IMG/VR virus record: IMGVR_UViG_3300020048_006428
Coordinates: 247,178 to 276,400 of that record
From: a virus
Lineage: Duplodnaviria > Heunggongvirae > Uroviricota > Caudoviricetes
Strand: one strand, 5' to 3'
DNA: 29,223 nucleotides
Notes under the pieces: generated by a model
The model's database searches: none
Seen by the model: only the letters and a program-made list of their open reading frames with translations
What the model was told of the DNA's origin: nothing
Shown: piece by piece, positions 2,503 to 11,723 of the stretch
How positions within the stretch are numbered: position 1 is the first letter of the stretch
How the letters are laid out: each line of letters opens with the position of its first letter
Position numbers and translations under genes: made by a program

Positions 2503-2878
2503 TTATTCCCAATATTTTTTATCTTTATTTCGTTTAAGTATCTTTTTATATTTTAATACTTCATCAACATTTATGAATGTAATCCCATTATATTCAAATG
2601 ATTTATTATCAATTAAATCATCTATATCCATAGATAGCCAATTATTAAAGAATTCAATACCATCTGTCCTATACTCATTATTATCACCAAATGTCCACTT
2701 AGATGGTTTTATTATTACATCTAAATCATTCACATCATCTAATAATCCTTTTATAACTAAGGGCGGATCCAAAAACTGCATAATCACCTTTTTCTAAATT
2801 AAATTGTTTTAATTTATCTAATAGATATTCCAAACGTTCTCCACTTTGGAAGTTTTCAAATAATTTTAAGTATTTCAT
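2503..2878 (-). pseudogene. Frameshifted gene: N-terminal MKYLKLFENF tag fused to a minimal nucleotidyltransferase-like domain
   Basis: Manual translation from the ATG at 2878 (ATGA overlap with the upstream stop) gives MKYLKLFENFQSGERLEYLLDKLKQFNLEKGDYAVFGSA, stopping at 2735. The +1 frame continues LVIKGLLDDVNDLDVII...VLKYKKILKRNKD to 2503. Joined, these give a G-S...D-x-D Pol-beta-like signature. The shift maps to GCCC at 2761-2764. Confidence 0.65.
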
Positions 2879-3523: not shown

Positions 3524-4402
3524 ATGAGTCTACGTAAATATGGTTTTTTAACTTGGGATAAAGATGAAGCATTGAAGAAGATTAATGCCATTGAAATTAT
3601 CAGAACAGATAATCAAATAGTTACCAAATATTTTGGGACTGTTAAGAAAGTCTGTAATGTATCAAATAAATATGAAGTATTTGATATAAAAGAGTTCTTA
3701 AAAGCTAAGATTGAACAAATTGAACAAAATTTTGACATTAGCCATTATAAATTAAAAATAAAAGGTGGTATTCAAGAACTAATCCTATTATCGGATGATG
3801 TAACTATTAATTCTTCAACTTACTATAAGTCATTTTATATACTAAATTCATCTGATAAATCCAGGCGTCTTAGTATGTATATGGGTCTATATAGAAGTGA
3901 TAATAATAGTTATATGGTTGGTTCTATTAAGAATATGTCCTTGCATAAAAAACACTATAAAGGTGTTACAGAAAAGGCAGAAGAAGCATCTTTGGTTATT
4001 GATGGTGAAACTTTTGATGAACAGATAAAGGCAATTCAATCATTAGTTGGTGAATCAGTTATGTTATCTAAAGTCCGTGATATATTAATTGATGAAGATT
4101 CAAACATAAATCACAAAAAATTTGATGCTTTTAAAAACTCATTAAGATATTCAAATTCTGATAAAGTAAAAGGTCTATCAGATACACAAGTAAAAACATT
4201 AAGCACACCATCTGAAAGATTGGAAATAGATTATAAAAATGACTTCTCAATTGACGCTTACCGAGTTTTTAATTGTTATATTCAACTATTCTATAACCAA
4301 GATTCACATGTTGTTAAAAAGGAAACTGATAAGATTCTGAAGATAACAACTTGTTTTATTAGAGATTCTAAAATAGAAGAAATTTTAAATTTCCTGGATT
4401 AA
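3524..4402 (+). CDS. DUF932-like protein with C-terminal tag IRDSKIEEIL
   Basis: VSNKYEVFD, FYILNSSDKSRRLSMYMGLYR and a downstream KKH resemble the DUF932 motifs VS..Y, L.NS.DGS....G..R and H, but the match is degenerate. Confidence 0.45.
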   Translation: MSLRKYGFLTWDKDEALKKINAIEIIRTDNQIVTKYFGTVKKVCNVSNKYEVFDIKEFLKAKIEQIEQNFDISHYKLKIKGGIQELILLSDDVTINSSTYYKSFYILNSSDKSRRLSMYMGLYRSDNNSYMVGSIKNMSLHKKHYKGVTEKAEEASLVIDGETFDEQIKAIQSLVGESVMLSKVRDILIDEDSNINHKKFDAFKNSLRYSNSDKVKGLSDTQVKTLSTPSERLEIDYKNDFSIDAYRVFNCYIQLFYNQDSHVVKKETDKILKITTCFIRDSKIEEILNFLD

Positions 4403-4414
4403 ATAAATATACAA

Positions 4415-4558
4415 ATGAACAAATTCAAATATATTACTACAACCTTAAATAGTATGAAAAAATATTACAGTAACCAAATACCATTACCTAAAAATAGTAT
4501 TTCTAAACTTAGAATAATTTTAGCAAAATTAAATGTTTTGAAAAAAGATGGAAATTAA
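4415..4558 (+). CDS. Micro-ORF 1 (47 aa) with degenerate C-terminal module SISKLRIILAKL
   Basis: Manual translation: MNKFKYITTTLNSMKKYYSNQIPLPKNSISKLRIILAKLNVLKKDGN*; overlaps the next start. Confidence 0.5.
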   Translation: MNKFKYITTTLNSMKKYYSNQIPLPKNSISKLRIILAKLNVLKKDGN

Positions 4559-4634
4559 ATGGTCAATTGGAAAATTAAAAAGAGTTTCAAAAATTAGAAA
4601 AATTTTAGAAAAATTAAAACAATATGGATCCTAA
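4548..4634 (+). CDS. Micro-ORF 2 (28 aa), cationic amphipathic peptide
   Basis: MEIKWSIGKLKRVSKIRKILEKLKQYGS*; overlaps both neighbours by 11 nt. Confidence 0.55.
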   Translation: MEIKWSIGKLKRVSKIRKILEKLKQYGS

Positions 4635-4734
4635 AGCAATTGATGAACTATTAAATGAACACGATAACTGGATAGATAGATATAAAATCCTATATAGAAT
4701 TTCAAAAATCAGAAAAATTTTAGAAAAAATATGA
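4624..4734 (+). CDS. Micro-ORF 3 (36 aa)
   Basis: MDPKAIDELLNEHDNWIDRYKILYRISKIRKILEKI*; ATGA overlap with the next ORF. Confidence 0.55.
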   Translation: MDPKAIDELLNEHDNWIDRYKILYRISKIRKILEKI

Positions 4735-4826
4735 AATACTTAAAATTATTTGAAAACTTTAATCAATCAGAAATTAATAGAATTTCAAAAATTAGAAAAA
4801 TTTTAGAAAAATTAGAAAAATTTTAG
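4731..4826 (+). CDS. Micro-ORF 4 (31 aa): N-terminal tag fused directly to the C-terminal module
   Basis: MKYLKLFENFNQSEINRISKIRKILEKLEKF*. A 20-bp tandem duplication (4791-4810 = 4811-4830) changes the ending from KLKQYG* to KLEKF*. Confidence 0.55.
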   Translation: MKYLKLFENFNQSEINRISKIRKILEKLEKF

Positions 4827-4841
4827 AAAAATTAAAACAAT

Positions 4842-5009
4842 ATGGGTGAAAATAATATGTTTGATTATGACTATTGGAAAGCACAATTTATAATTGAATC
4901 TGATAAGTGGACTTGCTCGCGAATGAGTGGGAGGCTGATGAGCTGGAAAGATCAATATAAAAATAGTAATAGAATTTCAAAAATCAGAAAAATTTTAAAC
5001 AAACTTTAA
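4842..5009 (+). CDS. Micro-ORF 5 (55 aa; alternative start 4857)
   Basis: MGENNMFDYDYWKAQFIIESDKWTCSRMSGRLMSWKDQYKNSNRISKIRKILNKL*; contains a GC-rich segment at 4907-4950. Confidence 0.55.
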   Translation: MGENNMFDYDYWKAQFIIESDKWTCSRMSGRLMSWKDQYKNSNRISKIRKILNKL

Positions 5010-5027: not shown

Positions 5028-5768
5028 ATGAAAGAATTAATTTTAGAAAAATTAAAATGCTTTGAACAAGATGATAAATTTTCATTCAATCCCAAGTATC
5101 ATAAATATACATATGATGGTGAAGTTTTAAAATCAGTAACAACATTGGTTAGTGAATTACATATTAAATTTGATTTTGAAGGAAAATCTAAAAAGAAAGC
5201 CGAAGAAGTCGGTGTTGACCAAAATTGGATAAAAGCAGAATGGTATGAAACCAATAGATATGCCAATGAAATTGGGACAGCCACACACCAATGGATAGAA
5301 GATTATTATAATCAAAAGTGGAATCCATTACCAACCAATCCAGATCTTATACATAGAATAAATAAATTCAATAAGATATACTGTAAATACTTACATAAAT
5401 TAACACCTGTTAAATTTGAAGTAAGGCTTTTTTCTAAAAAATGGAAGTTAGCTGGAACATTAGATGGTTTATTCCTTATGAATGATAAACTTTATATTTT
5501 AGATTATAAAACAAATAAAGTATTTAAAGATGATAATCATGAAGATGGTAGATGGAGAAAATTACTACCACCATTCAATTCTTTTTATGAAAACCACCAC
5601 AATGAATACTCAATACAATTATGTCTTTATGCCTTGATTTTAGAAGAATGGGGTATAAATGTATCAAGTGCTTATATAATTTATATTGGTCCTGATGACG
5701 AAGATGCAAAATTTGTAAAAGTAAAAGATATGCGTGAATATATTAAACAATATTTTGAAAGCCTCTAA
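5028..5768 (+). CDS. PD-(D/E)XK exonuclease, RecB/Cas4-like phage type
   Basis: HKYTYDG..LKSVTT, GTATH, FEVRLFSKKWKLAGTLDGL, ILDYKT and YSIQLCLYALIL motifs. Confidence 0.85.
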   Translation: MKELILEKLKCFEQDDKFSFNPKYHKYTYDGEVLKSVTTLVSELHIKFDFEGKSKKKAEEVGVDQNWIKAEWYETNRYANEIGTATHQWIEDYYNQKWNPLPTNPDLIHRINKFNKIYCKYLHKLTPVKFEVRLFSKKWKLAGTLDGLFLMNDKLYILDYKTNKVFKDDNHEDGRWRKLLPPFNSFYENHHNEYSIQLCLYALILEEWGINVSSAYIIYIGPDDEDAKFVKVKDMREYIKQYFESL

Positions 5769-6882: not shown

Positions 6883-7934
6883 TATTTACCTAATATTTTA
6901 TCAATTTGATCAATTTTGGCTTTATTATTATCATCAGAAATAAATTCGGCAAAATTGGCAACTTTAGACATTTTTTCTTCATCATTTTTAATTTTCCCTA
7001 ATGCGTCTGCTGCTTTTTTAGCATTGTCACCCATATCATTTTCAGCAACACCTATAATATCTTTATAACCCTTTTTAATGGTTGGTGAATTGTTTTTATC
7101 CAAAAATACTACACTTTGATCAGTATCATTTTGATCTAAACTATTTATTACTTTAACACCAACTATATCTTGTTGTTCAGTTGGTTTTTTGTTTTTATCA
7201 TAGTCATTTTTATCTTTATCTTTAAGTAAATATATAACAGGTGTTTTCTTATCAAAATATTCTTTTAATTTATCATAAGTCATTTCATCAGCATTTTCAC
7301 CTGATTTAGATTTAAGTTCTTTATAAAGTTTATCAATTTCTTCTTCTGTAATATCTTTTCTTAATTGATTTTTAATTTCCTTTTGAAAATTATCTAAGAA
7401 AGTAGATGCTATCTTCTTTTTTGCATTTATATCTTTTCCTTTATTTACTTCAATTATATAGTTAGATTTTGAATATTTAAATTTTATATCCTTTTTTAAT
7501 AATCCTTTTTGTGGATCAATTAAACCAACTAATCCAACAAAATCCATTTCTTTATTACCCATTAATATAGCTTTTGATAGTTCTATAACTGCTTTGGATT
7601 TACCTTTTCCTAAAGCAGTTTCAATATCCTTTCCTATATTATTTGATAGTTGGACTAAATTAATAGAAAAATTATCTACAATTCCTAATATAGATGTTTC
7701 ATCTTTTATATTAATTATTTCTTTTTGTGCCGAGTCTATTGCTTGATCTAAATTAGTTGTTATTACATTTACTAATGAATTTGGATCATCTTCTTTAAAC
7801 ATCTTTTTAAAATCATTGGCTAAGTCTTTAAATGGCCCAGCAAACATATTAGCAAGTTTTCCCAAAGCACCCTTTAAAGCAGGTAAAATGAATTCTTCAT
7901 TTAATTTAAATTCTTCGTATTTTTTAATTTTCAT
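6882..7934 (-). CDS. Hypothetical helical protein with N-terminal tag MKIKKYEEFKLNEE; candidate internal virion protein
   Basis: 350 aa; ATGA-coupled to LRR paralogue 2; amphipathic segment ILPALKGALGKLANMF follows the tag. Confidence 0.65.
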   Translation of the reverse strand: MKIKKYEEFKLNEEFILPALKGALGKLANMFAGPFKDLANDFKKMFKEDDPNSLVNVITTNLDQAIDSAQKEIINIKDETSILGIVDNFSINLVQLSNNIGKDIETALGKGKSKAVIELSKAILMGNKEMDFVGLVGLIDPQKGLLKKDIKFKYSKSNYIIEVNKGKDINAKKKIASTFLDNFQKEIKNQLRKDITEEEIDKLYKELKSKSGENADEMTYDKLKEYFDKKTPVIYLLKDKDKNDYDKNKKPTEQQDIVGVKVINSLDQNDTDQSVVFLDKNNSPTIKKGYKDIIGVAENDMGDNAKKAADALGKIKNDEEKMSKVANFAEFISDDNNKAKIDQIDKILGK

Positions 7935-8518
7935 ATGTAGGTATATCCTTCTATTTTTTCTGGTAGTTCTACCTGTTTATCATAATATTCATTGTAATCT
8001 TTAATAACTTCTTCTAAAAGATGTTTAACTATTTTACAATCTTTTCTTAAAAAGTTATATGTTTCTTGATAGTTTAAATATATTTTAACATTATAATCAA
8101 ATAATCGTATGACCCAATGTGTTATTGGATTTTCATGTGGAAAAAAATCACCACCTATTATTTTTGGATATCCATCCAAACTAGTTAATTCATTATCTTC
8201 CATATCAAAATCACCAACAACTTCTTTTGGACCACCTATTAAATTTGTTAATTCATTACCTATACAATAAAAATCATCACCTACATAATTTGGACTATTT
8301 TCTAATGTAGTTAATTCATTTCCACAACAATCAAACCAACCTGAAACTTTATTAAATTTAAGTGGCATTTTTGTTAATTTTTTACTATTTAAATCAACAT
8401 CACCATCTACATCAATTGATCCATCTGAATTAATTATATAGTTTTGTATACCATAATATTCACAAATATCATCAATTTGTGATTGATTGAAGTTTTCAAA
8501 TAATTTTAAGTATTTCAT
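7931..8518 (-). CDS. LRR-like protein with 21-aa repeats, paralogue 2, N-terminal tag MKYLKLFENF
   Basis: Units VSGWFDCCGNELTTLENSPNY / VGDDFYCIGNELTNLIGGPKE / VVGDFDMEDNELTSLDGYPKI; C-cap YQETYNFLRKDCKIVKHLLEE is shared with paralogue 1. Confidence 0.8.
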   Translation of the reverse strand: MKYLKLFENFNQSQIDDICEYYGIQNYIINSDGSIDVDGDVDLNSKKLTKMPLKFNKVSGWFDCCGNELTTLENSPNYVGDDFYCIGNELTNLIGGPKEVVGDFDMEDNELTSLDGYPKIIGGDFFPHENPITHWVIRLFDYNVKIYLNYQETYNFLRKDCKIVKHLLEEVIKDYNEYYDKQVELPEKIEGYTYI

Positions 8519-8556: not shown

Positions 8557-9558
8557 TTATATAATATACTTAAATTTATAACCATTCCTTGACTTACATT
8601 CCTCTATATACTTAGATATAGTAGATCTTTTCATACTAAAATGATTAGATGCTTCTGTCAGTGAGTTAAATTCCATATATTCATTTTTATTTTCATTATA
8701 TGCAGAAACTTTAAACCCTTTTGTCTTTTTATTAAAAAAATTATTATAATCCACATCACTAATTTCAGATTCATATATCCACGCAAAATCACCACAAGTT
8801 TTCCTTTTTTTATTAAGACACAACCATATATTTTTGAAGCTTAAATTGTTTTCCCTTGATGCACACATTAAATTATCATAATTAGTAAAAATACCATACT
8901 TATCTATCCGATAAATCTTTTGTCCTAATTTTGTTGTTTTAGATATCCTAATTTTAAGTTTTTCTTCAATATTTGTATCATCTTGAAAGAAAAATGTATA
9001 ACCCCTATTGAAATTCATCCCCCCATTTAATATATCAGATATATTTTTATATGATACATTCAATTTCTCACTGGCTCTTCTTGAATTATTAAAATATTCA
9101 ATTAAATTCTCATTAATATCATAACATACTATTTTTTTACCGCTATTGTATGTAGCTATAAAAATTTTTTCTTTAGTTTTCTCTGACATTTTTCTACCTC
9201 TACTCTTTTCACCAATTTTTCTCCTAGTTTCGGCTGATGGATTTTGTAATCCATCACCACCTTCTGTCATATTTAATAAATTTACACCCAAATATCTAAA
9301 TAATCTAATATAGTGTATTTCCCAATAATCAATTTCAGATTCAAATTCATCTATTATAAAAAATTCTGGTTTCAAATTATCCAAAAATAAATGATGTTTC
9401 CACATAGATAGTCTTGTAGCATAATGGTTTTTATCTTTACTACAGTGGTTTTTATACCTATTTTTAGGATTTTTTGTTTTTCCAATATAAACAACCTCAT
9501 TTGTAATTGGGTGTGATAAACAATAAATATAATTTTTCATAGTCGGTAGTTTCTTCAT
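8557..9558 (-). mobile_element. Free-standing GIY-YIG homing endonuclease gene with NUMOD3 and three NUMOD1-like DNA-binding repeats
   Basis: YIY..VYIGKT..R..H and E...I...LLNMTEGG catalytic domain; SAETRRKIGEKSRGRKMSEKTKEKI (NUMOD3); three I/V..yd....F.s...As repeats (NUMOD1). No flanking intron or split host gene is evident. Confidence 0.9.
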
Positions 9559-10165: not shown

Positions 10166-10514
10166 TTTAGTACAATTAATGCAAACTATTTCAGTTAGAA
10201 ATAAACTACTTTCTAATGATTTGAAATCAATGAAAAATGAATTAGAGGCTATTTTTGAAAATAAAGTTTTAGAAGCTGGCGTAACTACACCAGGTTATTT
10301 CCATTACTTCTTACCCACTTTAGATAAATATCAATATAATAGAATTATAACTTCATATCATATGTCAGAAGAACAATATAGTGATGGTACAACTGGACAA
10401 AATATTAAAATACCAATAGTTGATGTTATGTCAAATGGTAATTCAATTAGGATTTTTATAACACCAAGAACATTTTTAAGAAATCTAAAATTAGAACATT
10501 TATTAAATGAATAA
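10158..10514 (+). CDS. Hypothetical protein with C-terminal tag LRNLKLEHLL
   Basis: Overlaps both neighbours by 8 nt. Confidence 0.6.
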   Translation: MNNLVQLMQTISVRNKLLSNDLKSMKNELEAIFENKVLEAGVTTPGYFHYFLPTLDKYQYNRIITSYHMSEEQYSDGTTGQNIKIPIVDVMSNGNSIRIFITPRTFLRNLKLEHLLNE

Positions 10515-11277
10515 AATATATTTAGGTGATTGTTTGGAATTGATGAATGATATACCAGATAAAAGCATAGACCTTATATGTTGTGATTTACCATATGGAA
10601 CTACTAAATGTTCTTGGGATTCAATTATACCATTAGATAAATTATGGGAGCATTATAAAAGAATTATCAAGAACAATGGTGCGATAATATTATTTGCACA
10701 AACACCATTTGATAAAGTGTTAGGGTGTTCAAACTTAGAATGGTTAAGATATGAATGGATATGGGAAAAAACTCAAGCAACAGGATTTTTAAATGCAAAA
10801 AAAATGCCCCTAAAATCACATGAAAATATATTAGTTTTTTATAAAAATTTACCAACATATAATCCACAAAAAACATTTGGTCATAAGCCAATAAATAAAT
10901 ATACTAAAAAAGCATCAGTTCAAAATAAAACCGAAGTATATGGTAAAGTTAAAACTGATGTTAGTGGTGGTGGTGAAACAGATAGATATCCAAGAAGTGT
11001 TCAGATATTTTCATCTGATAAACAAAAAAACAAATTAAATGGTACAATTCACCCTACGCAAAAACCATTAAAACTATTAGAATATCTAATAATGACATAT
11101 AGTAATGAAGGTGATGTTGTATTAGATAATTGTGCTGGATCATCAACAACAGCAATTGCTTGTATTAATACAAATAGAAATTGGATTATGATGGAAAAGG
11201 AAGAAAAGTATTTTGAATTATCAAAAGGAAGAATTACAGAACATTTTAGGGATAAACAAATTAAATCAATAATATGA
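10507..11277 (+). CDS. Site-specific DNA methyltransferase (N6-adenine/N4-cytosine, beta class) with appended C-terminal tag FRDKQIKSII
   Basis: Catalytic motif DLPYG (DPPY variant) near the N-terminus; HPTQKP and VVLDNCAGSSTT SAM-binding region near the C-terminus. Confidence 0.9.
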   Translation: MNKIYLGDCLELMNDIPDKSIDLICCDLPYGTTKCSWDSIIPLDKLWEHYKRIIKNNGAIILFAQTPFDKVLGCSNLEWLRYEWIWEKTQATGFLNAKKMPLKSHENILVFYKNLPTYNPQKTFGHKPINKYTKKASVQNKTEVYGKVKTDVSGGGETDRYPRSVQIFSSDKQKNKLNGTIHPTQKPLKLLEYLIMTYSNEGDVVLDNCAGSSTTAIACINTNRNWIMMEKEEKYFELSKGRITEHFRDKQIKSII

Positions 11278-11351: not shown

Positions 11352-11723
11352 AATATTTTATTAAGTGAAACTGGTTTGGATTTTGATTTTCTTTATATTA
11401 AATCTAAAAAGGTATTATTTAATTATCATAGTCTTTGTGAAACAATAAGAATTGTAGAACTTAACAATGGAAAAATAAATTTTTTCTATTATAGTGGTTT
11501 AATTCACAAAAATAATTTCTTCTATAAAAATAAGCTAAGTTATAAATATTTATGTTTTCGATTTTATAAACTTTTTAATAATTTTTATCTAAAAGATGAA
11601 AGAATTGATGACTTCACAAACAGTGATAAATTCAAAAAATATATGGAAAAATATCCATTTTTAGTGGAACATTTTCCTATATTTAAAAGAGAAGAAAAAC
11701 TAAAACAGTTATTAGATGAATAA
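11274..11723 (+). CDS. Hypothetical protein with a duplicated start (MNWTK twice) and C-terminal tag KREEKLKQLL
   Basis: ATGA-coupled to the methyltransferase; alternative start at 11337. Confidence 0.6.
   Translation: MNWTKLQELLPTQRFGWKENNMNWTKNILLSETGLDFDFLYIKSKKVLFNYHSLCETIRIVELNNGKINFFYYSGLIHKNNFFYKNKLSYKYLCFRFYKLFNNFYLKDERIDDFTNSDKFKKYMEKYPFLVEHFPIFKREEKLKQLLDE

Follow-up and report, generated by a model that had tools for sequence, protein, structure and literature searches.

How does a 31-residue ORF come to begin like one gene family of its phage and to end like its own neighbours? This is the question raised by ORF D, one of a run of micro-ORFs in the window, by which we mean the whole stretch of DNA analysed (29,223 nt)—the final 29 kb of an IMG/VR virus record (C1; 276.4 kb, G+C 25%) whose completeness is approximately 47% by CheckV estimate. 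The original prediction read the ORF as a peptide made of two tags, and the repeats around it as an array that captures gene starts. We find that ORF D is a genuine, strain-specific recombinant micro-gene in which the start of an LRR gene is joined to a local micro-ORF tail; most likely, with a probability of about 0.6, it is a tolerated by-product of recombination at a leader that is present in many copies and conserved at the nucleotide level.

The phage that carries this locus is an uncultured, huge marine phage of the T4 type. The record encodes a gp21-family prohead protease (PF03420, 29.3 bits, above the cut-off) and a gp23-type capsid protein (PF07068, 85.6 bits), which together point to T4-like head assembly; one related contig carries the label marine metagenome, and among isolated phages, DNA similarity was limited to a methylase in Cellulophaga phages. 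Shine-Dalgarno sequences precede 10 of 216 long genes in the record, against a background of 2.5%, and genome-wide the positions -22 to -1 ahead of the start are rich in A, and position -1 favours T. We take this pattern, A-rich upstream and without Shine-Dalgarno sequences, to fit a Bacteroidota host.

The micro-ORFs lie in a slot between two conserved genes, with the following layout:

3524-4402, plus strand: conserved 292-aa gene, left border of the slot
4415-4558, plus strand: micro-ORF A, 47 aa, with the most diverged copy of the constant module; a 41-aa variant occurs in another assembly
4548-4634, plus strand: micro-ORF B, 28 aa
4624-4734, plus strand: micro-ORF C, 36 aa, its module truncated at the D junction, 8 nt short of canonical
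4731-4826, plus strand: ORF D, 31 aa, with 16 leader-derived residues and then the constant 15-residue tail
4731-4775, plus strand: leader copy in D (CTS-like leader plus NQSEI), 45 nt, the consensus 5' end of the LRR family
4776-4841, plus strand: constant module copy in D, enlarged by a 20-bp tandem duplication and ending immediately upstream of the ORF E start codon (ATG at 4842)
4790-4829, plus strand: two tandem 20-nt units, phase ambiguous, the sole difference from the ERZ27262919 allele
4842-5009, plus strand: micro-ORF E, 55 aa, the sole unit common to all strain types
5028-5768, plus strand: PD-(D/E)XK nuclease gene, right border of the slot, its N-terminus conserved in relatives

These tandem, translationally coupled ORFs behave as a family of small genes. 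They fill 93% of the 625-nt gap, compared with a mean of 8.5% in dinucleotide shuffles (none of 1000 reached the observed value), and their starts score like real gene starts. The repeat DNA that links them is present in six irregularly spaced copies (85, 115, 83, 20, and 172 nt apart): five are in one frame and form the tails of the five tiling micro-ORFs, and the sixth is an out-of-frame 20-bp tandem duplication. Likeness extends beyond the repeat, since B, C, E, and a sixth member found in other strains (F) have a Trp and approximately 20 further residues in common, and are thus paralogues. Alignable in this way and seen in three strain configurations, the units constitute a tandem paralogous micro-protein family. 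The family is an orphan; a profile search of 1.84 billion representative proteins returned members of this lineage only, the ESM Atlas held no look-alikes of ORF E, and an exact-pattern scan for the repeat gave no match in IMG/VR and one known contig in metagenomes. A reading of the repeat as an RNA or regulatory element was rejected—Rfam families were absent from the array, fold z-scores ranged from -0.3 to +0.9, and there was no excess of promoters or terminators.

The constant module ("C-tag") encodes a basic amphipathic helix; because it is A-rich and closes with the next ATG, it also serves as the region where translation of the following ORF starts. The 3' half of the module equals codons 5-10 of the nuclease gene at 5028 (19 nt exact, in the same frame), and the 5' half is 73-76% similar, over 33 nt, to the 3' end of the 292-aa gene. 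Judging from these similarities, the module may have arisen from the genes on either side of the slot; a pattern search for the nuclease start gave no match in the species genomes. The original prediction had treated the tag DNA as a mobile unit. This stands for the leader, which is portable (see below), whereas the DNA of the C-terminal repeat is confined to 4499-5006 and occurs nowhere else in the 276 kb.

What does recur genome-wide is a looser, ordered peptide motif at the C-terminus, roughly hydrophobic-hydrophobic-R-[DE]-x-K-[IL]-x-x-[IL]-[IL], after which come zero to five residues and the stop. Among 315 protein tails it closes 12, whereas shuffling the tails gives 0.5 on expectation and at most 4 in 2000 shuffles, and it is enriched approximately 10-fold or more in the last 10 residues relative to any bin farther from the C-terminus. 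Copies in the window lie at 4363-4402, 10476-10514, 11245-11277, and 11685-11723; they differ in their codons, which indicates conservation at the protein level, and a DNA methylase and the 292-aa gene are among the carriers. The two sorting pathways for which ORF D had been proposed as a decoy are not supported by anything that we found. Separately, ORF E contains an in-frame, G+C-rich insertion of 36 nt between direct TGGA repeats (4912-4947, with a phase uncertainty of 4 nt); the insertion is absent from the 43-aa allele of E in three other contigs, and its sequence had no match in the record, the metagenome contigs, or the species genomes.

Within this family, ORF D stands out by its front half. 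The proposal that it joins a gene start to the local repeat as a chimera is borne out by independent assemblies with the same junctions. The 31-aa allele is present in the window and in the ENA assembly ERZ27262918 (a 354-kb contig); ERZ27262919 (a 41-kb contig) carries a 32-aa allele that lacks the 20-bp duplication, has the canonical tail, and overlaps E by 8 nt. Over 799 aligned nucleotides the window and ERZ27262919 show no mismatch and a single 20-nt gap, so the difference is an indel polymorphism inside D; the duplication alters the C-terminus of D and uncouples it from E. The start of D overlaps the stop of C by ATGA, its context scores at the 87th percentile of long genes and is the best of the array, and D is probably translated. 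An aromatic residue of D occupies the alignment column in which B, C, E, and F carry their conserved Trp. Diverged orthologues of this ORF were not found.

The sources to which the front half had been assigned are two genes on the minus strand of the window:

7931-8518, minus strand: LRR paralogue, one of at least 11 full-length paralogues with a common 5' end
2503-2878, minus strand: leader-bearing nucleotidyltransferase-like gene, its first 29 nt in common with D; frameshifted here

Both matches are real: 4731-4775 equals 8474-8518 (minus strand) at 43 of 45 positions, where none of 100 shuffles gave any match, and D and the gene at 2878 have their first 29 nt in common. (Support for the LRR assignment itself is weak and comes from an internalin J match with E = 0.001.) The common junction was correctly seen in so far as AT precedes the ATG at all three sites; however, it is not distinctive, since A is found at -2 in 58% of long genes and T at -1 in 58% as well, and AT-ATG is the commonest start context in the genome. 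As observations on the neighbourhood of the two genes, the reading frame at 2503-2878 (minus strand) is split by a 2-nt deletion, with the same split in the gene calls of ERZ27262919 and an intact gene of 125 aa in strains of the L041 type, and a GIY-YIG homing endonuclease with NUMOD domains (8557-9558, minus strand) lies directly downstream, in window coordinates, of the LRR start at 8518.

The further claim, that identity at this level reflects recent copying from the two named donors, is not supported, because better matches lie elsewhere and the leader is conserved throughout the family. Outside the window, the 45 nt of D are matched at 45 of 45 positions at C1:77972 and at 44 of 45 at both C1:110790 and C1:150249, while eight further LRR paralogues differ at two to five positions. 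Pairwise nucleotide identity among the paralogues is 94% over codons 1-10, 84% over codons 11-16, and 69-76% downstream; the first 45 nt thus remain 84-94% identical over all of them, rare codons included. Of 18 leader genes, 13 have the codon TAC, which has a share of 9% genome-wide, and AAC is found in 12 of 15 against 12%, although leader bearers are partly paralogous and these counts are not independent. Codon bias alone would give identical codons for the leader peptide with a probability of 2.4e-4. The leader is therefore held or homogenised at the nucleotide level, and D carries the family consensus; with rare codons kept in this way, identity neither dates the copying nor names a donor.

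The leader is not restricted to LRR genes. Approximately 30 ORFs in the record begin with MKYLKLFENF or near variants on unrelated bodies, and the exact leader 30-mer is present in 16 IMG/VR loci (contigs of 13 to 676 kb), again on diverse and unrelated bodies; in the window, its first 29 nt head the nucleotidyltransferase-like gene. In one relative (G001), an extended leader of the LRR type, with 16 residues (48 nt), heads a 226-aa methyltransferase-like protein, with a break at approximately nt 48, close to that of D, and a longer version is fused to an 82-aa protein. The presence of the same leader on different bodies in this relative and in the window argues that in-frame transfer of the leader recurs. 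ORF D is the smallest leader-fusion product seen.

A literature search did not find the leader sequence; by analogy, it resembles the capsid-targeting sequence (CTS) of T4 in position, length, diversity of cargo, a candidate hydrophobic-x-Glu site (L-F-E, residues 6-8), and the presence of an encoded protease. As with the T4 CTS, a peptide of approximately 10 residues sits at the extreme N-terminus of unrelated proteins in a phage that encodes a capsid protein of the gp23 type and a protease of the gp21 type. For the T-even phages, the CTS is described as the sole conserved part of otherwise diverse internal proteins (PMC3012670 and PMC9026906, which cite Mullaney and Black 1996). There are also differences: the leader described here occurs on approximately 30 genes in half a genome, in contrast to three or four for the T4 CTS, and it cannot be aligned to the T4 sequence beyond MK and Phe7. 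In D, moreover, it precedes a 15-residue tail and not a folded cargo.

Comparison of strains places D in a slot that is hyperplastic. In three further contigs, a 118-aa gene and micro-ORF F stand in place of A to D, with a shorter E and the nuclease kept; one breakpoint of this replacement coincides with the stop of the 292-aa gene and the other lies within the module, which thus marks the right breakpoint. Eleven more distant relatives hold ordinary genes of approximately 45, 160, and 427 aa in the slot, and none of them has the array. A 68.6-kb contig of GCA_041447055.1 shows a third strain configuration, with the 41-aa variant of A, a 37-aa ORF, and then a 66-aa ORF that shares 4 nt with the 37-aa ORF and stops 18 nt short of the nuclease; this layout may include a further fusion where D would otherwise stand. 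ORF A was also compared with a 46-aa gene at the same position in another relative (G002); BLASTP gave no alignment, and homology was rejected.

Several other explanations of D have to be weighed against this background. An assembly error comes to mind in low-complexity, repeat-rich DNA; the region is AT-rich and repetitive, and assemblers can create differences such as the 20-bp duplication. We give a chimeric artefact next to no credence, however, since the C/D and D/module junctions are carried by both the 354-kb and the 41-kb ENA contigs, with no substitution over the aligned stretch. The capture of gene starts or other DNA between the repeats, possibly through the neighbouring Cas4-like nuclease, would account for repeats that alternate with unrelated variable segments, for the identifiable sources of one of these, and for the PD-(D/E)XK gene next to the array. 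This proposal now seems highly improbable. Searches of the 276-kb record with blastn-short and tblastn (approximately 47% of the genome) gave chance matches only, of 16 nt or less, for the variable parts of A, B, C, E, F, and the 118-aa gene at the DNA or protein level; in a DNA search of five related records the leader part was matched and the other variable segments were not. A source was thus found for one of six variable segments, that of D, an outcome that the original prediction had itself named as refuting it, although donors for the others could lie in the part of the genome outside the record. In addition, the repeats are read in frame and spaced irregularly, B, C, E, and F are paralogues of one another, the repeat has no significant hairpin, and the nuclease is not specific to the array: it occurs with the 292-aa gene in relatives without one. 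The nearest recombinase-like gene seen is the GIY-YIG endonuclease, 3.5 kb away. Two known kinds of array were considered and set aside: a CRISPR-like or spacer-capture array, given the lack of regular non-coding repeats and of array-specific acquisition genes and the single sourced segment, and an integron or PeSL-type cassette boundary, given the lack of a hairpin and of a promoter or terminator excess in an operon without a recombinase. The cassette-boundary system (PMC2839356; PMC4122927) is nonetheless alike in that a short, conserved motif bounds small exchangeable ORFs in a strain-variable region, with a breakpoint in the motif; in contrast to that system, the module has neither a promoter/terminator signature nor a significant stem-loop, and is both translated sequence and translation-start region.

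More is to be said for a product under selection, in which D would be a minimal cargo or adaptor, its 23-residue basic helix carried into the capsid by the leader, or would compete with other proteins that bear the N-terminal or the C-terminal motif (the "decoy"). Two in-frame junctions, a start coupled by ATGA in the best context of the array, the aromatic residue at the family Trp position, and persistence in at least two assemblies all fit such a role, as does the ordered C-terminal motif found genome-wide (12 tails against 0.5 expected). We nevertheless find a selected function doubtful: D is absent from the three contigs of the other strain type, which keep E and the nuclease, and its C-terminus varies between alleles through the 20-bp duplication. 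A broader version, which we think improbable, takes the slot as a diversification locus in which the module would join arbitrary N-terminal peptides to one docking helix and to the next start signal, D being the adaptor that would bring the helix, or its binder, into the virion through the capsid-targeting leader.

We therefore return to D as a tolerated by-product of recombination at the leader. The leader is the most repeated and best conserved stretch of the genome, which makes it a natural substrate for short-homology recombination or template switching. In such an event, the 5' part of one unit would have been swapped in frame for the first 45-48 nt of an LRR-family gene, with microhomology presumably provided by the AT-ATG start context on the left and by 1-3 nt on the right; insertion of a patch and insertion of a whole LRR gene followed by deletion would fit equally well. 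T4 amplifies and deletes DNA at microhomologies of 6-10 bp (Srikant et al. 2022, PMC9391042), and by analogy microhomology recombination of this kind is the likeliest mechanism here. Tandem units, short common junctions, and copy-number or indel polymorphism in a T4-type phage are alike in the two cases; in contrast to T4, the repeated unit here is a coding module of 35-45 nt, and the variable parts are unrelated and not amplified copies. If the leader works like the T4 CTS, it would take the remaining 23 residues of D into the prohead.

For the reading of phage genomes, the locus carries two lessons: arrays of small ORFs in phage gaps can be tandem micro-gene families whose common end is the next start signal, and need not reflect capture; and identity inside leaders such as this one cannot be read as recent copying from one donor. 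For the biology of the phages themselves, ORF D is a clean natural example of an N-terminal leader moving between genes in a huge T4-type phage, and it supports a view already put forward for the internal proteins of T4, in which a capsid-targeting leader serves evolution as a handle by which new cargo is recruited.
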